From NCBI RefSeq assembly GCF_988243305.1, contig NZ_OZ547136.1: DNA of 64,000 bases, one strand, 5' to 3'. A model generated the notes under the pieces. That model searched no databases. It was not told the DNA's origin and was given only the letters and a program-made list of their open reading frames with translations. The position numbers and the translations under genes are program-made. Of this stretch, positions 3,297-20,919 are shown one piece after another; position 1 is the stretch's first letter; each line of letters begins with the position of its first letter.

Positions 3297-3513
3297 GTTT
3301 ATAGTGGTTAATGGTCTGCGAAAAGGCAGCTGAATCTCTTCATCATGCAGAACGGAATTGCACACAACGGACTGATACTTCTCTGGCGGATGAGAGAGGG
3401 GAAGCATTTATGTCCGGGAAAAACCACTTTATCTGAGCATGCTGTTTTGTACCTGCCGGTATCCACATTTGTGGGTACCGGCTTTTTTATTCACCCTCTG
3501 TAAGGAAAAGCTG

Positions 3514-6500
3514 ATGAAACGACATCTGAACACCAGCTACAGGCTGGTATGGAATCACATTACGGGCACCCTGGTGGTGGCCTCCGAACTGGCCCGCTCA
3601 CGGGGAAAACGCGCTGGTGTGGCGGTTGCGCTGTCTCTTGCTGCTGTCACATCAGTCCCGGCACTGGCTGCTGACAAGGTTGTACAGGCGGGAGAAACCG
3701 TGAACGACGGAACACTGACAAATCATGACAACCAGATTGTCCTCGGTACGGCCAACGGAATGACCATCAGTACCGGTCTGGAGTATGGGCCGGATAACGA
3801 GGCCAATACCGGCGGACAATGGATACAAAATGGCGGTATCGCCAACAACACTACTGTCACCGGTGGTGGTCTTCAGAGAGTGAATGCCGGAGGAAGCGTT
3901 TCAGACACGGTTATCAGTGCCGGAGGCGGACAGAGCCTTCAGGGGCAGGCAGTGAACACCACTCTGAACGGCGGTGAGCAGTGGGTACATGAAGGCGGGA
4001 TTGCAACGGGTACCGTCATTAATGAGAAGGGCTGGCAGGCCATCAAATCCGGCGCAGTGGCAACCGACACGGTTGTGAATACCGGCGCGGAAGGGGGACC
4101 GGATGCGGAAAATGGTGATACCGGGCAGACCGTCTACGGAGATGCCGTACGCACCACCATCAATAAAAATGGTCGTCAGATTGTGGCTGCTGAAGGAACG
4201 GCAAATACCACTGTGGTTTATGCCGGCGGCGACCAGACTGTACATGGTCACGCACTGGATACCACGCTGAATGGGGGGTACCAGTATGTGCACAACGGCG
4301 GTACGGCGTCTGGCACTGTTGTAAACAGTGACGGCTGGCAGATTGTCAAAAATGGGGGTGTGGCCGGGAATACCACCGTTAATCAGAAGGGCAGACTGCA
4401 GGTGGACGCCGGTGGTACAGCCACGAATGTCACCCTGAAGCAGGGCGGCGCACTGGTTACCAGTACGGCTGCAACCGTTACCGGCATAAACCGCCTGGGA
4501 GCATTCTCTGTTGTGGAGGGTAAAGCTGATAATGTCGTACTGGAAAATGGCGGACGCCTGGATGTGCTGACCGGACACACAGCCACTAATACCCGCGTGG
4601 ATGATGGCGGAACGCTGGATGTCCGCAACGGTGGCACCGCCACCACCGTATCCATGGGAAATGGCGGTGTACTGCTGGCCGATTCCGGTGCCGCTGTCAG
4701 TGGTACCCGGAGCGACGGAAAGGCATTCAGTATCGGAGGTGGTCAGGCGGATGCCCTGATGCTGGAAAAAGGCAGTTCATTCACGCTGAACGCCGGTGAT
4801 ACGGCCACGGATACCACGGTAAATGGCGGACTGTTCACCGCCAGGGGCGGCACACTGGCGGGCACCACCACGCTGAATAACGGCGCCATACTTACCCTTT
4901 CCGGGAAGACGGTGAACAACGATACCCTGACCATCCGTGAAGGCGATGCACTCCTGCAGGGAGGCTCTCTCACCGGTAACGGCAGCGTGGAAAAATCAGG
5001 AAGTGGCACACTCACTGTCAGCAACACCACACTCACCCAGAAAGCCGTCAACCTGAATGAAGGCACGCTGACGCTGAACGACAGTACCGTCACCACGGAT
5101 GTCATTGCTCAGCGCGGTACAGCCCTGAAGCTGACCGGCAGCACTGTGCTGAACGGTGCCATTGACCCCACGAATGTCACTCTCGCCTCTGGTGCCACCT
5201 GGAATATTCCCGATAACGCCACGGTGCAGTCGGTGGTGGATGACCTCAGCCATGCCGGACAGATTCATTTCACCTCCACCCGCACAGGGAAGTTCGTACC
5301 GGCAACCCTGAAAGTGAAAAACCTGAACGGACAGAATGGCACCATCAGCCTGCGTGTACGCCCGGATATGGCACAGAACAATGCTGACAGACTGGTCATT
5401 GACGGTGGCAGGGCAACCGGAAAAACCATCCTGAACCTGGTGAACGCCGGCAACAGTGCGTCGGGGCTGGCGACCAGCGGTAAGGGTATTCAGGTGGTGG
5501 AAGCCATTAACGGTGCCACCACGGAGGAAGGGGCCTTTATCCAGGGGAATAAGCTGCAGGCCGGTGCCTTTAACTACTCCCTCAACCGGGACAGTGATGA
5601 GAGCTGGTATCTGCGCAGTGAAAATGCTTATCGTGCAGAAGTCCCCCTGTATGCCTCCATGCTGACACAGGCAATGGACTATGACCGGATTCTGGCAGGC
5701 TCCCGCAGCCATCAGACCGGTGTAAGCGGTGAAAATAACAGCGTCCGTCTCAGCATTCAGGGCGGTCATCTCGGTCACGATAACAACGGCGGTATTGCCC
5801 GTGGAGCCACGCCGGAAAGCAGCGGCAGCTATGGCTTCGTCCGTCTGGAGGGTGACCTGCTCAGAACAGAGGTTGCCGGTATGTCTGTGACCGCGGGGGT
5901 ATATGGTGCTGCTGGCCATTCTTCCGTTGATGTTAAGGATGATGACGGCTCCCGTGCCGGCACGGTCCGGGATGATGCCGGCAGCCTGGGCGGATACCTG
6001 AATCTGATACACAACGCCTCCGGCCTGTGGGCTGACATTGTGGCCCAGGGAACCCGCCACAGCATGAAAGCCTCATCGGACAATAACGACTTCCGCGTCC
6101 GGGGCTGGGGCTGGCTGGGTTCGCTGGAAACCGGTCTGCCCTTCAGTATCACTGACAATCTGATGCTGGAGCCGCAACTGCAGTACACCTGGCAGGGACT
6201 CTCCCTGGATGACGGCCAGGATAACGCCAGTTATGTGAAGTTCGGGCATGGCAGTGCACAACATGTGCGTGCCGGCTTCCGTCTGGGCAGCCACCACGAT
6301 ATGAACTTTGGTAAAGGCACCTCATCCCGTGACACCCTGCGCGGCAGTGCCAAACACAGTGTGCGTGAACTGCCGGTGAACTGGTGGGTACAGCCTTCTG
6401 TTATCCGCACCTTCAGCTCCCGGGGGGGCATGAGCATGGGTACAGCCGCAGCCGGCAGTAACATGACGTTCTCACCGTCACAGAATGGTACGTCACTGGA

Positions 6501-6633
6501 CCTGCAGGCCGGACTGGAAGCCCGTGTCCGGGAAAATATCACCCTGGGCGTTCAGGCAGGTTATGTCCACAGCGTCAGCGGCAGCAGCGCTGAAGGCTAT
6601 AACGGTCAGGCCACGCTGAATGTGACCTTCTGA
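3514..6633 (+). CDS. flu: antigen 43 self-associating autotransporter
   Basis: ORF 3439..6633; canonical Ag43 N-terminus MKRHLNTSYRLVWNHITGTLVVASELARS begins at ATG 3514 after aaggaaaag; long beta-helical passenger with repetitive G/T/N-rich repeats and C-terminal beta-barrel ending in TLNVTF. Confidence 0.9.
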   Translation: MKRHLNTSYRLVWNHITGTLVVASELARSRGKRAGVAVALSLAAVTSVPALAADKVVQAGETVNDGTLTNHDNQIVLGTANGMTISTGLEYGPDNEANTGGQWIQNGGIANNTTVTGGGLQRVNAGGSVSDTVISAGGGQSLQGQAVNTTLNGGEQWVHEGGIATGTVINEKGWQAIKSGAVATDTVVNTGAEGGPDAENGDTGQTVYGDAVRTTINKNGRQIVAAEGTANTTVVYAGGDQTVHGHALDTTLNGGYQYVHNGGTASGTVVNSDGWQIVKNGGVAGNTTVNQKGRLQVDAGGTATNVTLKQGGALVTSTAATVTGINRLGAFSVVEGKADNVVLENGGRLDVLTGHTATNTRVDDGGTLDVRNGGTATTVSMGNGGVLLADSGAAVSGTRSDGKAFSIGGGQADALMLEKGSSFTLNAGDTATDTTVNGGLFTARGGTLAGTTTLNNGAILTLSGKTVNNDTLTIREGDALLQGGSLTGNGSVEKSGSGTLTVSNTTLTQKAVNLNEGTLTLNDSTVTTDVIAQRGTALKLTGSTVLNGAIDPTNVTLASGATWNIPDNATVQSVVDDLSHAGQIHFTSTRTGKFVPATLKVKNLNGQNGTISLRVRPDMAQNNADRLVIDGGRATGKTILNLVNAGNSASGLATSGKGIQVVEAINGATTEEGAFIQGNKLQAGAFNYSLNRDSDESWYLRSENAYRAEVPLYASMLTQAMDYDRILAGSRSHQTGVSGENNSVRLSIQGGHLGHDNNGGIARGATPESSGSYGFVRLEGDLLRTEVAGMSVTAGVYGAAGHSSVDVKDDDGSRAGTVRDDAGSLGGYLNLIHNASGLWADIVAQGTRHSMKASSDNNDFRVRGWGWLGSLETGLPFSITDNLMLEPQLQYTWQGLSLDDGQDNASYVKFGHGSAQHVRAGFRLGSHHDMNFGKGTSSRDTLRGSAKHSVRELPVNWWVQPSVIRTFSSRGGMSMGTAAAGSNMTFSPSQNGTSLDLQAGLEARVRENITLGVQAGYVHSVSGSSAEGYNGQATLNVTF

Positions 6634-6753
6634 CAGAACCATCGCCTCTCTGTGGTCCCGGTCATCATGATCGGGACCCGGACCGGCGCAACGGATATTC
6701 AACGCCACATTCGCTGGCATTAACAATAACATGATATTCATCACGGAGTGACT

Positions 6754-9270
6754 ATGTTACAGATAGTCGGCGCGCTGATCCTGCTGATCGCAGGATTTGC
6801 CATTCTTCGCCTTTTGTTCAGAGCATTAATCAGCACGGCTTCTGCGCTGGCAGGGCTCATATTGCTGTGTCTGTTCGGCCCGGCCTTACTGGCTGGCTAT
6901 ATCACCGAACGCATAACCCGGTTGTTCCATATTCGCTGGCTGGCAGGCGTATTTCTGACGATTGCCGGAATGATCATCAGCTTCATGTGGGGACTTGATG
7001 GTAAACATATCGCGCTGGAGGCTCACACCTTTGACTCTGTGAAATTTATTCTGACCACCGCTCTCGCCGGTGGTCTGCTGGCTGTTCCCCTGCAGATCAA
7101 AAACATTCAGCAGAACGGGATCACACCAGAAGATATCAGCAAGGAAATTAACGGGTATTACTGCTGTTTTTATACTGCCTTTTTCCTTATGGCGTGTTCT
7201 GCATGCGCACCATTGATCGCGTTACAGTACGATATTTCACCGTCACTGATGTGGTGGGGCGGGTTGTTGTACTGGCTGGCTGCATTAGTGACGCTGCTAT
7301 GGGCGGCCAGCCAAATCCAGGCGCTGAAAAAACTGACCTGTGCCATCAGCCAGACACTGGAAGAACAACCGGTGCTCAACAGTAAATCGTGGCTGACCAG
7401 TTTGCAAAACGATTACAGCCTTCCTGACTCACTGACGGAGCGCATCTGGCTGACGCTCATTTCTCAACGGATTTCCCGGGGAGAGCTGAGGGAATTTGAA
7501 CTGGCAGACGGAAACTGGTTACTGAACAATGCCTGGTATGAAAGAAACATGGCAGGGTTTAACGAACAGTTGAAAGAGAACCTGTCATTCACACCTGATG
7601 AACTGAAAACGCTCTTCCGGAACCGCCTGAATTTATCACCGGAAGCGAATGACGATTTTCTCGATCGTTGCCTGGACGGCGGTGACTGGTATCCCTTTTC
7701 AGAAGGTCGCCGTTTTGTATCATTCCATCACGTGGATGAGCTTCGTATCTGTGCCTCCTGCGGGCTGACAGAAGTACATCATGCCCCGGAAAATCATAAG
7801 CCGGATCCGGAATGGTACTGCTCCTCTCTTTGTCGCGAAACAGAAACACTGTGTCAGGAAATTTATGAACGCCCTTACAACAGCTTTATTTCCGATGCAA
7901 CGGCGAATGGTCTGATTCTCATGAAACTGCCGGAAACCTGGAGTACAAATGAGAAAATGTTTGCTTCCGGAGGGCAGGGACATGGGTTTGCCGCTGAACG
8001 GGGAAACCATATTGTCGACAGAGTCCGTCTGAAAAACGCACGGATCCTCGGTGATAATAATGCCAGAAATGGAGCAGACAGACTGGTCAGCGGAACAGAA
8101 ATCCAGACGAAATATTGTTCAACTGCAGCCCGTAGCGTCGGTGCGGCATTCGACGGACAAAACGGACAGTATCGTTACATGGGAAATAATGGCCCCATGC
8201 AACTGGAAGTCCCCCGTGATCAGTATGCCGGCGCTGTTGAAACCATGAGGAATAAGATCCGCGAAGGTAAAGTACCCGGTGTAACCGATCCCGCAGAAGC
8301 ATCCCGGCTGATTCGTCGGGGACATCTGACTTATACTCAGGCCCGTAATATCACCCGGTTCGGGACCATCGAATCGGTCACTTATGATATTGCCGAGGGT
8401 TCGGTTGTCAGTCTGGCGGCCGGAGGGATCAGTTTTGCCCTGACGGCATCGGTCTTCTGGCTCAGCACCGGCGATCGCGATGCTGCCCTGCAGACAGCTG
8501 CTGTCCAGGCAGGAAAAACCTTCACCCGCACACTGGCTGTCTACGTCACAACCCAGCAACTCCACCGGCTCAGTGTTGTTCAGGGTATGCTGAAGCACAT
8601 TGATTTTTCGACTGCCAGCCCGACTGTTCGACTGGCTCTTCAGAAGGGGACCGGTGCAGGAAATATCAGTGCCCTGAACAAAGTGATGAAGGGTACGCTG
8701 GTGACATCTCTGGCACTGGTAGCTGTCACAACCGGCCCTGACATGATCAAAATGTTGCGGGGACGGATCTCCGGTACGCAGTTCATCAGGAATCTTGCCG
8801 TGGCATCTTCCGGTGTGGCAGGTGGTGCTGTCGGGTCAGTGGCGGGCGGAATACTGTTCAGTCCACTGGGACCATTTGGTGCACTGACAGGGCGTGTGGT
8901 TGGCGGTGTTCTGGGGGGAATGATTGCCTCCGCTGTATCAGGAAAAATTGCCGGAGCGCTGGTTGAAGAAGATCGCGTCAAAATTCTGGCAATGATTCAG
9001 GAGCAGGTGACATGGCTTGCCGGCAGTTTCCTGCTGACCGGACATGAGATTGAAAATCTGAACGAGAATCTGGCCCGTGTTATCGATCAGAATGCTCTGG
9101 AGATCATTTTCGCCGCCGGTATACAACAACGGGCCGCGACCAATATGTTAATCAAACCACTGGTGGTCAGTATCATCAGGCAACGCCCCGTCATGGAATA
9201 TGATGCATCCCATCTCGGCAATATGGTTAACCGACTGGAAGAAGCATTACCCCCGGAGTTACCGGCATAA
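6754..9270 (+). CDS. yeeR: YeeR-like inner membrane protein (enlarged, about 838 aa)
   Basis: ORF 6748..9270; several hydrophobic N-terminal helices and a glycine-rich hydrophobic C-terminal block; sits directly after flu as yeeR does in CP4-44; ATG at 6754 preferred over GTG 6748 (ggag 5 nt upstream). Confidence 0.55.
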   Translation: MLQIVGALILLIAGFAILRLLFRALISTASALAGLILLCLFGPALLAGYITERITRLFHIRWLAGVFLTIAGMIISFMWGLDGKHIALEAHTFDSVKFILTTALAGGLLAVPLQIKNIQQNGITPEDISKEINGYYCCFYTAFFLMACSACAPLIALQYDISPSLMWWGGLLYWLAALVTLLWAASQIQALKKLTCAISQTLEEQPVLNSKSWLTSLQNDYSLPDSLTERIWLTLISQRISRGELREFELADGNWLLNNAWYERNMAGFNEQLKENLSFTPDELKTLFRNRLNLSPEANDDFLDRCLDGGDWYPFSEGRRFVSFHHVDELRICASCGLTEVHHAPENHKPDPEWYCSSLCRETETLCQEIYERPYNSFISDATANGLILMKLPETWSTNEKMFASGGQGHGFAAERGNHIVDRVRLKNARILGDNNARNGADRLVSGTEIQTKYCSTAARSVGAAFDGQNGQYRYMGNNGPMQLEVPRDQYAGAVETMRNKIREGKVPGVTDPAEASRLIRRGHLTYTQARNITRFGTIESVTYDIAEGSVVSLAAGGISFALTASVFWLSTGDRDAALQTAAVQAGKTFTRTLAVYVTTQQLHRLSVVQGMLKHIDFSTASPTVRLALQKGTGAGNISALNKVMKGTLVTSLALVAVTTGPDMIKMLRGRISGTQFIRNLAVASSGVAGGAVGSVAGGILFSPLGPFGALTGRVVGGVLGGMIASAVSGKIAGALVEEDRVKILAMIQEQVTWLAGSFLLTGHEIENLNENLARVIDQNALEIIFAAGIQQRAATNMLIKPLVVSIIRQRPVMEYDASHLGNMVNRLEEALPPELPA

Positions 9271-9345
9271 CGGCTATTCTGCGCCTTTTACGCTTTATCA
9301 CCTGATTTGTCAGTGTCATCGTCATGACTCAGAGAGGTAAATACC

Positions 9346-9801
9346 ATGATTCACCTGTTCAAAACCTGCATGATTACCGCCTTCATTCTGGGGTTAACGT
9401 GGTCTGCCCCACTCCGGGCACAGGATCAACGTTACATCAGTATACGCAATACAGATACGATATGGCTCCCGGGAAATATTTGTGCTTACCAGTTCCGGCT
9501 GGATAATGGCGGAAACGATGAAGGATTTGGCCCCCTCACCATCACTCTGCAACTCAAAGACAAATATGGTCAGACGCTGGTGACCAGAAAAATGGAAACG
9601 GAAGCTTTTGGTGACAGTAATGCCACGCGAACCACAGACGCATTTCTGGAAACGGAGTGCGTGGAAAATGTCGCCACAACCGAAATCATCAAAGCAACTG
9701 AAGAAAGTAACGGCCATCGTGTCAGTCTGCCGTTATCGGTTTTCAATCCCCAGGACTACCATCCACTGCTGATTACCGTTTCCGGAAAAAACGTTAACTG
9801 A
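9346..9801 (+). CDS. hypothetical secreted protein (signal peptide)
   Basis: ORF with N-terminal signal-like sequence MIHLFKTCMITAFILGLTWSAPLRA; gagagg RBS 8 nt upstream. Confidence 0.5.
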   Translation: MIHLFKTCMITAFILGLTWSAPLRAQDQRYISIRNTDTIWLPGNICAYQFRLDNGGNDEGFGPLTITLQLKDKYGQTLVTRKMETEAFGDSNATRTTDAFLETECVENVATTEIIKATEESNGHRVSLPLSVFNPQDYHPLLITVSGKNVN

Positions 9802-9879
9802 TCCCTGAAGTCAGTTTCATGCTTCAGCCTCTGTCACAACGCGTGGCAGAGGCTTTTTATTTATCAGGAGAAAACAGAT

Positions 9880-10113
9880 ATGCCGGGTTACACAGAGTAT
9901 GTCCTGGCTGAAGGATCTTTCTCATACGGGCAGGCGGTTGCTGTCATAACCGCTTACCGCAATGTGTTTATCCAGGATGACCCGGGAATGCATTTCCGTC
10001 GGGTTATCCGCAACGCGGAAGGTCAGCGACGCTGGCGCTGCCGGAATTCTGAACCCGATGCCGGAAAGGTGCTTAATACGCGGCTCGCCAGTGACGGTCT
10101 TCTCAGACAATAA
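9880..10113 (+). CDS. small island protein (DUF905/YkfF-like by position)
   Basis: 77-aa ORF with aggag RBS; occupies the slot of the small DUF905 gene preceding DUF932 in CP4-type modules; family assignment from memory only. Confidence 0.4.
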
Positions 10114-10212
10114 ACGTCATTCATTTCACCCATCAGGCCGCGTCTTCTCCGGGAGACGTGGCTTTTTCATTTATTACACCAGTAAATCTTAACCACCGAT
10201 AAGGAGCAAATT

Positions 10213-11031
10213 ATGCGACTAGCCAGTCGTTTTGGTTATGCGAACCAGATACGCCGTGACCGTCCGCTGACACACGAAGAACTGATGCACTATGTGCCGG
10301 GGATTTTCGGGGAAGATAAACACACGTCCCGAAGCCAGAACTATACGTACATCCCCACCATCACCGTACTGGAAAGCCTGCAGCGGGAAGGCTTTCAGCC
10401 ATTCTTCGCCTGCCAGACCCGTGTGCGCGACCCGGGCCGCCGGGGATACACAAAACACATGCTGCGTCTGCGGCGGGCCGGAGAGATAAACGGAGAACAT
10501 GTCCCTGAAATTATTCTGCTCAACTCTCATGACGGTACCTCCAGCTACCAGATGCTGCCGGGTTACTTCAGGTTCGTCTGCCAGAACGGATGCGTCTGTG
10601 GTCAGTCTCTGGGGGAAGTGCGTGTTCCGCACCGGGGAAATGTGGTGGACAGAGTCATTGAAGGGGCTTACGAGGTGGTGGGCGTGTTTGACCGGATTGA
10701 GGAAAAGCGTGATGCCATGCAGTCGCTGATTCTGCCGCCACCGGCACGCCAGGCGCTGGCACAGGCGGCACTGACTTACCGTTATGGTGACGAACATCAG
10801 CCCGTCACCACCGCCGACATTCTGACGCCACGACGCCGGGAGGATTACGGTAAGGACCTGTGGAGTGCTTATCAGACCATTCAGGAGAATATGCTGAAAG
10901 GCGGAATTTCAGGTCGCAGCGCTAAAGGAAAACGTATCCATACCCGTGCCATTCACAGCATTGACACTGACATTAAGCTCAACCGCGCATTGTGGGTGAT
11001 GGCGGAAACCCTGCTGGAGAGCCTGCGCTGA
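10213..11031 (+). CDS. DUF932 family protein (YfjQ/YafZ-like)
   Basis: 272-aa ORF with aaggag RBS; length and position match the YfjQ/YafZ family of CP4 prophage-like islands. Confidence 0.6.
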   Translation: MRLASRFGYANQIRRDRPLTHEELMHYVPGIFGEDKHTSRSQNYTYIPTITVLESLQREGFQPFFACQTRVRDPGRRGYTKHMLRLRRAGEINGEHVPEIILLNSHDGTSSYQMLPGYFRFVCQNGCVCGQSLGEVRVPHRGNVVDRVIEGAYEVVGVFDRIEEKRDAMQSLILPPPARQALAQAALTYRYGDEHQPVTTADILTPRRREDYGKDLWSAYQTIQENMLKGGISGRSAKGKRIHTRAIHSIDTDIKLNRALWVMAETLLESLR

Positions 11032-11085
11032 TTCAGCCATTACCCTGAAAACCACGCATTTATTTGTCCTTTAAGGAGTCATTTC

Positions 11086-11571
11086 ATGAAAACCATTTCA
11101 CATAATTCCACCACATCTTCTGTTTCCGTAACCGCTGCATCAGGGAATGACCAGCCTCAGTTGGTTGCCACCCTCGTCCCTGATGAACAGCGCATCAGCT
11201 TCTGGCCGCAGCACTTTGGCCTCATTCCACAGTGGGTGACCCTGGAGCCCCGTGTCTTCGGCTGGATGGACCGTCTGTGTGAAGACTACTGCGGTGGTAT
11301 CTGGAATCTGTACACCCTGAACAACGGCGGGGCATTTATGGCACCCGAACCGGATGACGATGATGACGAAACATGGGTACTGTTCAATGCCATGAACGGT
11401 AACCGCGCTGAAATGAGTCCGGAAGCTGCCGGCATTGCTGCCTGTCTGATGACGTACAGTCATCATGCCTGTCGTACGGAGTGTTATGCCATGACGGTCC
11501 ATTATTACCGGCTGCGGGATTACGCCCTGCAGCATCCGGAATGCAGCGCCATTATGCGCATCATCGACTGA
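11086..11571 (+). CDS. antirestriction protein (ArdB/KlcA-like, YfjX/YafX family)
   Basis: 161-aa ORF, aaggag RBS, acidic DDDDDE stretch; conserved position upstream of the radC-like gene. Confidence 0.6.
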   Translation: MKTISHNSTTSSVSVTAASGNDQPQLVATLVPDEQRISFWPQHFGLIPQWVTLEPRVFGWMDRLCEDYCGGIWNLYTLNNGGAFMAPEPDDDDDETWVLFNAMNGNRAEMSPEAAGIAACLMTYSHHACRTECYAMTVHYYRLRDYALQHPECSAIMRIID

Positions 11572-11586
11572 ATGGAGAGAAGTACA

Positions 11587-12063
11587 ATGCAACAGCTTTC
11601 CTTTCTGCCCGGAGAGATGACGCCCGGCGAGCGCAGCCTCATTCAACGGGCCCTGAAAACCCTGGACCGCCATCTTCATGAACCCGGCGTGGCCTTCACC
11701 TCCACCCGTGCGGCACGAGAATGGCTGATTCTGAACATGGCGGGACTGGAGCGTGAAGAGTTCCGGGTGCTGTATCTGAACAACCAGAATCAGCTGATTG
11801 CCGGTGAAACCCTCTTCACCGGCACCATCAACCGCACGGAAGTCCATCCCCGTGAAGTGATTAAACGCGCCCTGTATCACAATGCCGCTGCTGTGGTGCT
11901 GGCACACAATCACCCGTCCGGTGAAGTCACACCCAGCAAGGCAGACCGCCTTATCACGGAACGTCTGGTACAGGCACTGGGCCTGGTGGATATCCGGGTG
12001 CCGGACCATCTGATAGTCGGTGGCAGCCAGGTTTTCTCCTTTGCCGAACATGGTCTGCTTTAA
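11587..12063 (+). CDS. yeeS: RadC-like JAB-domain protein
   Basis: JAMM-like motif HNHPSGEVTPSKADRLIT; K-12 YeeS-like N-terminus MQQLSFLPGEMTPGERS at ATG 11587 (ORF-track start 11572). Confidence 0.75.
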   Translation: MQQLSFLPGEMTPGERSLIQRALKTLDRHLHEPGVAFTSTRAAREWLILNMAGLEREEFRVLYLNNQNQLIAGETLFTGTINRTEVHPREVIKRALYHNAAAVVLAHNHPSGEVTPSKADRLITERLVQALGLVDIRVPDHLIVGGSQVFSFAEHGLL

Positions 12064-14097: not shown

Positions 14098-14753
14098 ATC
14101 TGCAAAAAGGAATATCGATTATGTCTGATATCACAGCCTACCGTCCGGAAGTGGTCAACGAGAATACGGACGTTATCTGCTCAACCAGCATCCGCCGCAT
14201 TCTGGCTGTACGAAAGAGTTCACTGCTGCAAATCGACACAATTATCCGGCATCAAGTGAGCGATATCAGTTAACAGATATAGATGGAGAAGATGCTTTTA
14301 TCCGGATTGGTTCTATCGCGATGGTGCGAGTACTACTTGATGCAATGAAGCCTGTCGAGGAAGATGACGAGTAACAGAGCTCGGTATCTCAATCAGGAGC
14401 TGATTGTCCTGGTTCGATGCCGAAAACCAGTGATTTTTCGTGTTGGTATCTGTGTTGGTATAAGATGATATTGTTTATTATTAACAATTTTAAATCATGA
14501 GGTTAAGTCACATGTTTGAGTCCGGCCTTCGCACCTTCGCACCTTCGCACCATCGGAACATCAATAGACATCAACGGACGTTTTTTTATGACTGAAATCC
14601 GCGCCACACAAGGCTTTTCGCTATTTTTCGCTCAACCTAAGTCAACCTACATCAACTTACTGATGTGGATACAGCTACAGCTGCGGCTATACCCCGATTC
14701 GATAATGTTTGTACCCACACAAAACCCTTGAAAGGCTACAAGGCTGAAATTGT

Positions 14754-15238
14754 CTAAACCATAGAGATGATTTTTATGATCCAGTCTTTCTCTTGTTGAG
14801 ATAGTTCCAGTTTGCTCACTCGTGTTAAGAAGGTATTGATCACCTGAACATCCGAATTGGTGAGCCTATTTAATAGAGCGGGTGGTATACCTTTACTAAC
14901 AATCGCTTTGCGGTGACTTTCGTAGTTTTTATTACTCATTGTTGATCCTAAAAAATCATTGTATGGCGGCATTGATCGTTTCCAGCAACCTTTACTTACT
15001 CACTTCGAACTGCATCCTCGTAGACTGTTCCACTACAATAATCGAAAAGGCGCGGATGTCCATTCAGGTATCCCGCTAATACGTATAGCAATAACAATGG
15101 CTTATGCGGCGCGCGCTGTTCACCCTTGTGCCAGATTTTTATATTGGCAATTGCCTGCTGTAGCGATTTACTGGAAGCTATTGATATCCCTGGCAGTGAA
15201 ATAATTGCGATCATGCTCGCAAATTTTCTGCTGTTCAA
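14754..15238 (-). pseudogene. possible disrupted gene (two adjacent short ORFs, 80 aa and 72 aa)
   Basis: ORFs 14996..15238 and 14754..14972 on the same strand in different frames separated by 23 bp; divergent from the HNH gene; no recognisable family. Confidence 0.25.
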
Positions 15239-15317
15239 GCCTGCAAGTGAAGATATATTACCTTGATCTCATTTGTTTTTTTGCTGCCTGTTCTGAGAAC
15301 GTATAAGGACATTCTCC

Positions 15318-15968
15318 ATGAATAAACTCCCTGATCATCTTCCGCGGCGGTATATCATCGAAGCTATCCATTTATGGGATGCGGGAGAAACTCATCAGTT
15401 CCAGCCTGCGCGGTTGTATGAGATTGAATATCATGGCCGACGTTACCCCTCGAAGGCGATTGCTGGCATCGCAGCGACATTGATGACGGGGACGCAATTT
15501 ACCCCTGCGGATTTCACCGGCGGAATAAAATCTAAATGTGTCAAGCTACTCATAGAGCAGGGATTTCATATTCATCTGGATAAAGCCGCTGCGGCTCCCA
15601 TAGCCGACGTTCTGTTCCCGGATGAGTTGCCGTCGCAGGAGACATACCTTGAAGGTGCGGCGATAAAGGTGACAGTAAACCGCTATGAACGCGATAAAAA
15701 GGCCCGAGATAAAGCGGTCGAACATCATGGATGCCAGTGCAACGTATGCGGTGTTGATCTGGTGAAGATCTATGGTGATATCGCTGAAGGCTTTATCCAT
15801 GTGCATCACCTGGTGCCGCTGTCAGCCATTAAAGAGGATTACCAGCTGGATCCAGTTAATGATTTGCTGCCTGTGTACCCTAATTGCCATGCGATGTTGC
15901 ACCGACGCAAACCACCGTTTACGCCGGAGCAGTTAAAAGCGCTGATGGATGCGAATAAATCAAATTAA
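15318..15968 (+). CDS. HNH endonuclease family protein
   Basis: 216-aa ORF; C-terminal HNH signature CQCNVCG ... HVHHLVPLS ... NCHAMLH (two Cys pairs flanking His/Asn catalytic positions); N-terminal about 120 aa of unknown function. Confidence 0.7.
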   Translation: MNKLPDHLPRRYIIEAIHLWDAGETHQFQPARLYEIEYHGRRYPSKAIAGIAATLMTGTQFTPADFTGGIKSKCVKLLIEQGFHIHLDKAAAAPIADVLFPDELPSQETYLEGAAIKVTVNRYERDKKARDKAVEHHGCQCNVCGVDLVKIYGDIAEGFIHVHHLVPLSAIKEDYQLDPVNDLLPVYPNCHAMLHRRKPPFTPEQLKALMDANKSN

Positions 15969-15975
15969 TGAACGC

Positions 15976-16956
15976 TCACCTTTCGCGCCAAAACTGCAAA
16001 ATTGCTTCTACAAACTTGTCAGAAATAATCCCCCGACGGGCTGCCGTGCTGAAATGACTGCTTCGCAGTGCCGTCGTCCAGTTCTCCGGTGACCGGTACG
16101 CTGAACCGTAATATCCCGTGCTTAAATCGTCCGGGTCTTCATCAGGCGCGTTCGTCAGTCCTCTTTCACCTTGTTGCTGGAAGTCGACGAAAATAATATT
16201 GGCTAAAACATTATTTTGATAATTGCCATAAATAACTTCATACGCATGAGGGAAATTTTCTTTCCAGTACCAGGTGGTATCGCCGCAAAACCACGGTGCG
16301 TCAGTAATATTATTAAGCTGAGAATGGTATTGTTTTAGATCCCTACGAAAGGCTTCAACCATATGATTAAAGTGTTGAGGGTGTGACGCGTAGTCACTGG
16401 TCATTAAGTCAAATTCGCCTTGCATCCAGCATACGCCGAGGAATTTGTTATGCGGATTTTTTGCCAGTGCGGCTCGCGTTCTGCTGACTAAATCCTGGTA
16501 TAGCGGAGTATCCGTTCCCCAACGACAAGCATCATGGCTGGCTCCGTGCCGTTCTGAATATGTTCCTTCGCTGCCCGCGGTAAAAGCCGATCCGCCACGG
16601 CAACACGGAACGATGAGAACCCCTGCATTATCAGGAATAAAGGGCAGTAATTTCCGTGCTATATGCAGTGCCTGGCCAACGGTGCCGTACTGTGTTTGAT
16701 GATTCGTTGCCAGAGGATGGTGATAACCCTGCATATCCTGAACATCGTGTGGGCAGTGAGTCAGTGGAATAATGTCGTTAAAGTGACATGACGGGCCTCC
16801 GGGATGCGTATGCGCAAATCTCGCTAATTGTTTAATTCTGGGATGAGGCGCATCTTCCCTGTCCGGTAATGGCAGTCCTTCGCCATACGCCATGGCATTA
16901 GACTGACCAGCAACGGTAAGAATATAGTAATAATCAGGCGATATTATTGCGTTCAT
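15976..16956 (-). CDS. nanS: N-acetyl-9-O-acetylneuraminate esterase
   Basis: ORF 15976..16983; K-12-like N-terminus MNAIISPDYYYILTVAGQSNAMAYGEG starts at ATG 16956; 326 aa. Confidence 0.85.
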   Translation of the reverse strand: MNAIISPDYYYILTVAGQSNAMAYGEGLPLPDREDAPHPRIKQLARFAHTHPGGPSCHFNDIIPLTHCPHDVQDMQGYHHPLATNHQTQYGTVGQALHIARKLLPFIPDNAGVLIVPCCRGGSAFTAGSEGTYSERHGASHDACRWGTDTPLYQDLVSRTRAALAKNPHNKFLGVCWMQGEFDLMTSDYASHPQHFNHMVEAFRRDLKQYHSQLNNITDAPWFCGDTTWYWKENFPHAYEVIYGNYQNNVLANIIFVDFQQQGERGLTNAPDEDPDDLSTGYYGSAYRSPENWTTALRSSHFSTAARRGIISDKFVEAILQFWRER

Positions 16957-20316: not shown

Positions 20317-20919
20317 ATGAAGAATAAGGCTGATAACAAAAAAAGGAACTTCCTTACCCATAGTGAAATCGAGTCACTCCTTAAAGCAGCAAATACCGGG
20401 CCTCATGCAGCACGTAATTATTGTCTGACTTTGCTTTGTTTTATTCATGGTTTCCGGGCGAGTGAAATTTGTCGATTGAGGATTTCGGATATTGATCTTA
20501 AGGCAAAGTGTATATATATCCATCGATTAAAAAAAGGCTTTTCAACAACGCACCCGCTATTGAACAAAGAAGTTCAGGCTTTAAAAAACTGGTTGAGTAT
20601 CCGTACTTCTTATCCGCATGCTGAGAGCGAGTGGGTATTTTTATCACGTAAGGGGAATCCGCTTTCTCGGCAACAGTTTTACCATATTATCTCGACTTCT
20701 GGTGGTAATGCCGGGTTGTCACTGGAGATTCATCCGCACATGTTACGCCATTCGTGTGGTTTTGCTTTGGCGAATATGGGAATAGATACGCGACTTATCC
20801 AGGATTATCTTGGGCATCGCAATATTCGTCATACTGTCTGGTATACCGCCAGCAATGCAGGGCGTTTTTACGGCATCTGGGATAGAGCCAGAGGACGACA
20901 GCGTCACGCTGTTTTATAG
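20317..20919 (+). CDS. fimB: type 1 fimbriae switch recombinase FimB (tyrosine recombinase)
   Basis: 200-aa ORF MKNKADNKKRNFLTHSEIESLL...; catalytic motif HPHMLRHSCGFALA...LGHRNIRHTVWYT. Confidence 0.95.
   Translation: MKNKADNKKRNFLTHSEIESLLKAANTGPHAARNYCLTLLCFIHGFRASEICRLRISDIDLKAKCIYIHRLKKGFSTTHPLLNKEVQALKNWLSIRTSYPHAESEWVFLSRKGNPLSRQQFYHIISTSGGNAGLSLEIHPHMLRHSCGFALANMGIDTRLIQDYLGHRNIRHTVWYTASNAGRFYGIWDRARGRQRHAVL

Follow-up and report, generated by a model that had tools for sequence, protein, structure and literature searches.

Intact yeeR of a CP4-44-type island encodes a predicted multi-domain membrane protein whose conserved C-terminal module is cut short in Escherichia coli K-12

Introduction

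The gene yeeR lies in genomic islands of Escherichia coli between agn43, which encodes the adhesin Ag43, and irmA. We analysed a stretch of 64,000 nucleotides from contig NZ_OZ547136.1 (NCBI RefSeq assembly GCF_988243305.1), called the window throughout, in which positions 6754-9270 of the plus strand hold yeeR as one long open reading frame (ORF). This ORF is the intact yeeR of a CP4-44-type island, which here adjoins the nan/fim region. The shorter YeeR of the laboratory strain K-12 is almost certainly the remnant of a deletion of about 3.3 kb that joined codon 507 out of frame to yeeS. The C-terminal two-fifths of the protein that K-12 is missing (residues 508-838) belong to a conserved, mobile and widely scattered module, YeeR_C. 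The K-12 deletion cuts inside this module, at residue 507, and leaves a fragment without over half of it.

The best explanation of the data as a whole, which we hold with good confidence, is that of an intact gene, a K-12 remnant and a predicted multi-domain membrane protein that likely serves as a conflict effector. Taken by itself, the proposal that YeeR_C is a putative effector of a mobile-element conflict or anti-phage defence system is more tentative, and we give it a little less than an even chance.

The intact gene and its remnant in K-12

Positions 6754-9270 translate as a single stop-free ORF of 838 codons plus a stop. A Shine-Dalgarno sequence, GGAG (6745-6748, plus strand, read directly from the sequence), lies 5 nt before the ATG at 6754. 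A longer version of the ORF would begin at GTG 6748. Since this codon overlaps the ribosome-binding site, translation probably begins at ATG 6754, the start that RefSeq also gives. The coding sequence (CDS) is 100% identical to that of locus WP_001315618.1 of E. coli GE3, which RefSeq names 'hypothetical protein', and the first 16 kb of the window match the GE3 genome at 99.9% identity. The same 838-residue CDS occurs at 97-100% identity in many hundreds of E. coli genomes. A sequence-only reading of this stretch had described a protein of about 838 residues with membrane helices, a cysteine-containing region and a glycine-rich block, an account that was accurate overall. It had also remarked that the protein is much longer than its K-12 counterpart, and indeed the two measure 838 and 510 residues (b2001, CP4-44 island).

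The origin of this difference can be read from the DNA. By blastn, the K-12 locus aligns to window positions 3450-8274 and picks up again at 11611; direct reading of the junction agrees, so that the segment missing from K-12 spans 8275-11610 (about 3.3 kb). Within it lie yeeR codons 508-838, irmA, the genes for a DUF905 protein, a DUF932 protein and an antirestriction protein, and the first ~10 codons of yeeS. K-12 yeeR and the window gene share 99.9% DNA identity along the query's first 1527 nt. Both have the same flanks (agn43 upstream, yeeS downstream), and the two are orthologous: b2001 and the window yeeR are the same gene. The proteins share 507 residues, identical through V507, after which the K-12 frame runs through an out-of-frame EER to a stop inside the start of yeeS. 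Without residues 508-838, K-12 YeeR is deprived of the last helices of the nuclease-like domain, all of the glycine-zipper helices and the C-terminal domain (all described below). The RefSeq label on this remnant is still 'protein YeeR'.

The truncation is not new. Moriel et al. (2016; PMC4807369) reported a large deletion in MG1655 that disrupts yeeR, and the truncation was also published in 2019 (Bernabeu et al., PMC6480617). The size discrepancy is therefore real but ordinary, and has been in the literature since those years. The sequence-only reading had allowed that the long form might simply be the intact version of a K-12 pseudogene with no distinct domains. The first half of that account is correct (the long form is the intact gene and the K-12 copy is broken), and the second half is not, as distinct conserved domains are present. 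Because the long form is intact and K-12 carries a deletion remnant, the C-terminal region is the core of the family and no addition to it.

Both forms circulate in E. coli. The gene has a match in 2582 of 5426 complete genomes and is at least 80% complete in 1800. The exact K-12 junction occurs in 385, and the same set holds further partial forms as well as yeeR copies disrupted by insertion sequences. Some E. coli proteins (P0159, P0164, P0162 and P0163) are chimeras that share 98-100% identity with the last three-quarters of the module query (YeeR residues 396-838) and begin with either a GTPase N-terminus (Pfam MMR_HSR1/Dynamin_N) or the ESPR signal peptide of Ag43. They resemble the products of in-frame deletions that joined yeeP or agn43 to yeeR.

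A conserved module with a sparse but wide distribution

Searches of Pfam, NCBIfam and PHROGs with the whole protein gave nothing above threshold, only noise of the glycine-zipper type. The empty Pfam result is explained by the set searched, which was without the PF27347 model. The precomputed family PF27347 (YeeR_C) is carried by database proteins with 97-100% identity to the window protein (P0151, P0153 and P0154) and by distant homologues. Through the near-identical proteins, the family can be placed at about residues 400-815 of the protein studied here. We found no function attached to the family name.

When 1.84 billion representative proteins were searched, 1199 relatives came up with E up to 0.001. 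About 40 among the matches listed are collinear proteins of 820-850 residues with 31-53% identity; for the more distant relatives listed, the match is limited to ~residues 400-815, irrespective of the sequence that precedes it. One rare paralogue in E. coli reaches 68% identity over its full length. Full-length collinear homologues of 820-850 residues, present at 37-68% identity, speak for one real gene and against a K-12-like 510-residue ancestor whose ORF was lengthened by a recent insertion. With one genome taken per species, the full-length collinear architecture occurs in Enterobacter, Pseudomonas, Vibrio, Bordetella, Herbaspirillum, Cupriavidus and others. Of ~100,000 species genomes, 253 hold a confirmed YeeR_C module, a sparse but wide spread over Proteobacteria, Firmicutes, Cyanobacteria, Lentisphaerae, Riflebacteria, Acidobacteria and Chlamydiae.

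Architectures and neighbourhoods were counted in a retained set of 80 species loci; the upstream flank reaches at least 3 kb in 57 of them. The core motif is kept in 78 of the 80, and the N-terminus varies: transmembrane helices plus a four-cysteine (Cys4) motif, as in the window protein, in 17 loci, and no N-terminal transmembrane helix in 59. Other N-termini carry Sel1/TPR repeats or a domain shared with PADLOC's BnzA. Few homologues are found in sequenced phages (one record) or on true plasmids, and most of the family resides in chromosomes and islands.

Predicted architecture of the N-terminal half

An AlphaFold model built on 94 homologues describes the protein as a confident single chain (mean pLDDT, the predicted local distance difference test, 87). 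Residues 1-190 (6754-7323, plus strand) form a predicted polytopic membrane domain with 5-6 hydrophobic segments in the Kyte-Doolittle profile, which coincide with helices of pLDDT 86-97 in a region where AlphaFold places long helices across residues 1-204; the N-terminal transmembrane helices seen at first reading are thus well supported. This domain is restricted to the proteobacterial form of ~820-850 residues, that is, to the 17 of 80 species loci mentioned above.

Two winged-helix-like units may follow (residues 205-325; 7366-7728, plus strand), each modelled as helices and then a beta hairpin. Foldseek of the full model against the Protein Data Bank (PDB) gave weak matches to tandem winged helices (ESCRT-II, SelB and PyrSV gp04; E ~0.1, probability 0.92-0.97) and, beyond these, transporter noise only. 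The assignment is tentative.

The next element is a zinc-ribbon-like Cys4 motif (residues 333-367; 7750-7854, plus strand) with the spacing C333-x2-C336-x19-C356-x3-C360, plus C367. In the model, a knuckle and a helix at residues 330-372 carry C333, C336, C356 and C360, and a linker helix comes next. At each of these four positions 51-53 of the aligned homologues have a residue, which is Cys in 48-51 of them; H342, H343 and H348 are not conserved in the alignment. Of the Cys/His-containing middle region first proposed, the cysteines therefore stand and the histidines do not. TRASH/FCS-type zinc ribbons are defined by C-x2-C-x19-22-C-x3-C with an aromatic-Cys-Ser signature. The spacing in YeeR, accompanied by a conserved W-[YF]-C-S, resembles that of such ribbons and marks a putative metal site; no Pfam model matched it. 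Judging from the model and the motif, the winged-helix-like units and the Cys4 ribbon are probably cytoplasmic.

A predicted nuclease-like domain followed by glycine-zipper helices

The YeeR_C module opens with a domain that resembles restriction endonucleases of the PD-(D/E)xK type (residues 405-540; 7966-8373, plus strand), modelled as alpha-beta-beta-beta-alpha-beta. All 94 aligned sequences have E415, D442, Q451, K453 and E485, and H410, N418, D422, R443 and Y454 are nearly invariant in the same alignment. E415 sits in the first helix, D442 just before the second strand and Q451-x-K453 at the end of the third, an arrangement that fits the PD-(D/E)xK pattern except for Q451 at the acidic position.

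Database comparisons add no named relative. Foldseek of the domain model found nothing significant (Hjc, PspGI, EcoT38I and CdiA-CT stood near the top of the list), PDB sequence and profile searches returned only glycine-zipper segments and chance matches and no nuclease family, and 50 copies of the domain, compared with Pfam at E up to 10, converged on no family. On the strength of the modelled topology and the invariant residues, we consider a restriction-endonuclease fold for residues 405-540 rather more probable than its absence.

Known PD-(D/E)xK effectors with variable N-termini offer a comparison, namely Shedu SduA, Hachiman HamA, Lamassu LmuA and CdiA-CT. None matches YeeR at the sequence level, and two differences are plain: the YeeR motif has Gln in place of the acidic residue, and a long glycine-zipper membrane region, absent from these proteins, extends beyond the nuclease-like domain of YeeR.

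That hydrophobic helical region spans residues 545-735 (8386-8958, plus strand) and includes a predicted glycine-zipper hairpin at 676-733, delineated by hydrophobicity, AlphaFold and weak glycine-zipper matches. Residues 560-735 contain 14% Gly and 14% Ala together with hydrophobic segments, in keeping with the glycine-rich hydrophobic block noted from the sequence. The weak matches are to C19orf12-like proteins, a tape-measure protein and SlyB; that to the C19orf12-like family PF20721 scores 16.2 bits against a Pfam cut-off of 30, below the gathering threshold. What PF20721, YMGG/SlyB and phage tape-measure segments share with residues 676-733 is GxxxG-rich paired helices, a likeness of composition and motif that covers <10% of the protein. 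At least one strongly hydrophobic segment follows the nuclease-like domain in 73 of 80 homologues, and the glycine-zipper helices probably sit in, or insert into, the membrane.

A predicted C-terminal helical domain (residues 739-831; 8968-9246, plus strand, from AlphaFold helices) ends the module and is kept to about residue 815 in distant homologues. There is moderate support, from the model and from conservation, for a module that combines a restriction-endonuclease-fold domain with membrane-associated glycine-zipper helices. The idea that the extra domains of the long form might give a clue to function was thus partly rewarded: they constitute a conserved module of mobile islands, apparently nuclease-like and membrane-associated, and the clue points away from Ag43.

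Operon and island context in the window

The window holds agn43 upstream of yeeR (annotated at 3514-6633, plus strand) and irmA downstream (9346-9801, plus strand). Directly behind irmA is a strong terminator-like hairpin, 12 pairs long and with a T-run (9826-9864, plus strand), identified as a consensus match only. No terminator-like site was found in the window between agn43, yeeR and irmA, and a hairpin only after irmA fits the published three-gene transcript: in uropathogenic E. coli (UPEC), agn43, yeeR and irmA are co-transcribed, and the operon is phase-variable and repressed by OxyR (PMC4807369). In strain 042, irmA has its own promoter. The mechanical ORF of Ag43 starts at ATG 3439 (1064 residues), and the RefSeq start is at 3514 (1039 residues).

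The island genes near yeeR include those for DUF932, antirestriction, RadC/JAB and CbtA/CbeA proteins, which are of the transfer-associated leading-region type. Further along, window positions 14121-16956 are a decayed island end, annotated in GE3 with fragments of a DUF4942 gene, of a helix-turn-helix regulator and of a restriction endonuclease that binds phosphorothioated DNA. The GE3 annotation also gives an intact HNH endonuclease at 15318-15968 and a truncated sialate O-acetylesterase beside nanM/nanC. The fimB gene (20317-20919), annotated as frameshifted in GE3, is an intact ORF of 200 codons in the window, which implies a strain other than GE3 or a sequence that has been corrected.

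Pairing with Ag43 is not a trait of the family. No autotransporter was among the recurrent neighbours in the 80 species loci or in the non-E. coli loci inspected individually, and the only other Ag43/Cah gene seen near a homologue lies in an E. coli island, ~9 kb off and on the opposite strand. The sequence-only reading had treated YeeR as an Ag43-paired family; this linkage is instead confined to E. coli-type islands, with none seen in the 80 species loci.

Genomic neighbours of the module elsewhere

Fifteen of the 80 species loci have a WYL regulator within 5 kb, for the most part upstream, and this pattern recurs in one metagenomic contig. On the conjugative Lactococcus plasmid pNCDO184A (L099 4940-8780), a WYL gene, a YeeR_C homologue (named 'glycine zipper family protein' in RefSeq) and a 285-residue hypothetical gene follow one another. 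Other recurrent neighbours are XRE-type regulators, small unannotated proteins directly up- or downstream, and a Sel1-repeat protein. The small conserved neighbours in Firmicutes (~112 residues upstream and ~120 residues downstream) had no Pfam or PADLOC match and, at that level, no relation to IrmA.

Several homologues adjoin integrases, AlpA or RadC genes. In a defence-type island of Paraburkholderia, TerB/BrxC-like genes stand on one side of the homologue and OLD-TOPRIM and UvrD-like genes on the other; single cases elsewhere include a ResIII gene in an integrase-bounded island and a SIR2 gene as neighbour. A human-gut Oscillospirales phage (L100 4401-6353) has its homologue between the genes for an endolysin and a DNA invertase (a recombinase). 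In a cyanobacterium (L011 365-3577), a 464-residue YeeR_C protein is directly followed by a LeoA-like GTPase of the dynamin family (E 3e-98 to PADLOC LeoA) and a small ORF resembling the LeoA C-terminus. In E. coli islands, the YeeP-type GTPase upstream of agn43 has weak LeoBC/LeoA similarity.

The most telling arrangement, found among the nearest relatives that are not identical, is a tightly packed set of four genes, encoding a WYL regulator, PDC-M09A (281 residues), PDC-M09B (~483 residues) and, last, a YeeR homologue (~840 residues). It is carried by two Enterobacter species, a few E. coli genomes and one Serratia species with a shorter YeeR ORF (L019 3562-9329, L023 3567-9329, L029 3563-8456 and L098 7001-12763). 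In E. coli the full set is present in 4 genomes; partial matches to the query occur in 24, and in several of these cover no more than its first 241 nt. The M09A and M09B proteins of these sets match their PADLOC models with E 1e-119 and 1e-216. From its sequence, PDC-M09B is a distant relative (paralogue) of YeeR_C: it keeps the HG..AE, AD and QxK motifs, and YeeR_C proteins match the M09B models along the full module with E 5e-6 to 1.5e-7. No M09A, M09B or WYL gene was found in the window by tblastn, so the window locus does not belong to PDC-M09.

Proposed function and alternative explanations

Put together, the predictions describe YeeR as a multi-domain inner-membrane protein with a 5-6 helix anchor, winged-helix-like units, a Cys4 ribbon and the YeeR_C module, the last composed of a restriction-endonuclease-like domain (E...D...QxK...E), glycine-zipper helices and a helical C-terminus. 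In such a protein, sensing or localisation would fall to the variable N-terminal domains. Action would follow through binding or cleavage of nucleic acid at the membrane by the nuclease-like domain, through membrane damage by the glycine-zipper helices, or through both. The domains point towards a nuclease-like, membrane-associated module of islands, and no significant sequence match supports a particular activity. The neighbours that favour a conflict effector are the WYL regulators, the PDC-M09 genes, the Paraburkholderia island, the ResIII and SIR2 genes and the phage locus. A more specific version sees YeeR_C proteins as membrane-associated defence effectors of the restriction-endonuclease fold (anti-phage or anti-plasmid) that work alone under WYL control or with PDC-M09A/B, and were captured in E. 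coli islands into the phase-variable, OxyR/Dam-controlled agn43 operon. We regard this version as doubtful. If it were true, a defence function would go ON and OFF in step with the Ag43 adhesin, and K-12, the usual host for testing, would be a natural loss-of-function mutant.

Several observations weigh against an effector role. The (D/E) position of the PD-(D/E)xK motif is occupied by the invariant Gln451, and because Gln stands at this canonically acidic position catalysis is not assured. Relocated acidic active-site residues occur in some restriction enzymes (Cfr10I/NgoMIV), and by analogy the invariant E485 on the next strand could compensate. The membrane topology was judged from hydrophobicity and charge only. 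The neighbour counts, that of the WYL regulators included, are raw counts rather than enrichments over the genome background, and many homologues are surrounded by ordinary housekeeping genes. The PDC systems are unpublished, unvalidated PADLOC candidates, and the window protein matches the M09B model only in part (E 4.8e-6). Finally, literature searches for YeeR in phage resistance, in defence or as a nuclease found nothing.

The strongest alternative, unlikely in our judgement, holds that the endonuclease-like domain is catalytically dead and serves binding or regulation only, and that YeeR_C remodels or repairs membranes together with dynamin-like GTPases. GTPase adjacency is limited to one distant locus, that of the cyanobacterium, and the 80-locus neighbourhood analysis yielded no GTPase cluster. 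That five charged or polar residues are invariant throughout the 94 sequences is also easier to reconcile with an active site than with a role in structure alone.

Less probable again is a role for YeeR in the island's own DNA traffic (DNA handling at the membrane, or exclusion of related elements) rather than in phage defence. The setting is suggestive, with yeeR among genes of the leading-region type, homologues beside integrases, AlpA and RadC and one on a conjugative plasmid, and predicted DNA-binding-type domains joined to a membrane anchor. Most homologues, however, are single genes with no transfer genes nearby, and the association with WYL and PDC-M09 points to regulation of the defence type. 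Related CP4-type islands in K-12 are not known to carry yeeR, which we also count against this explanation.

A helper function, in which YeeR would assist Ag43 biogenesis or display, or the release of IrmA, is very improbable. K-12 has an intact agn43 beside its truncated yeeR, and K-12 Ag43 is functional. Homologues in other genera, Gram-positives included, have no autotransporter neighbour, and in strain 042 irmA has a promoter to itself. Shared transcription and OxyR regulation in UPEC, along with the lack of a terminator-like site separating the three genes, would favour such a role, yet IrmA is released in an MG1655 agn43 mutant that has no functional YeeR (PMC4807369). The YeeR-independent release of IrmA, the K-12 agn43 locus and the missing Ag43 linkage elsewhere largely refute it. 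That the long ORF is an artefact (a two-gene fusion or a strain-specific read-through) has a negligible chance: deletion-made chimeras do exist in some strains, but the idea is refuted by collinear homologues of 820-850 residues across Proteobacteria, and the CDS recurs nearly unchanged in many hundreds of genomes with a confident single-chain model.

Significance

The difference in size has a plain cause, a broken K-12 copy, and a practical consequence. Annotations and functional screens that rest on K-12 'YeeR' describe a fragment from which over half of the conserved module is absent. Intact YeeR, in turn, occurs in roughly one in three complete E. coli genomes, and its gene shares a transcript with that of a well-studied adhesin. 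The predicted domain picture offers candidates for mutation (E415, D442, K453 and the glycine zipper), for which K-12 is a ready null background.

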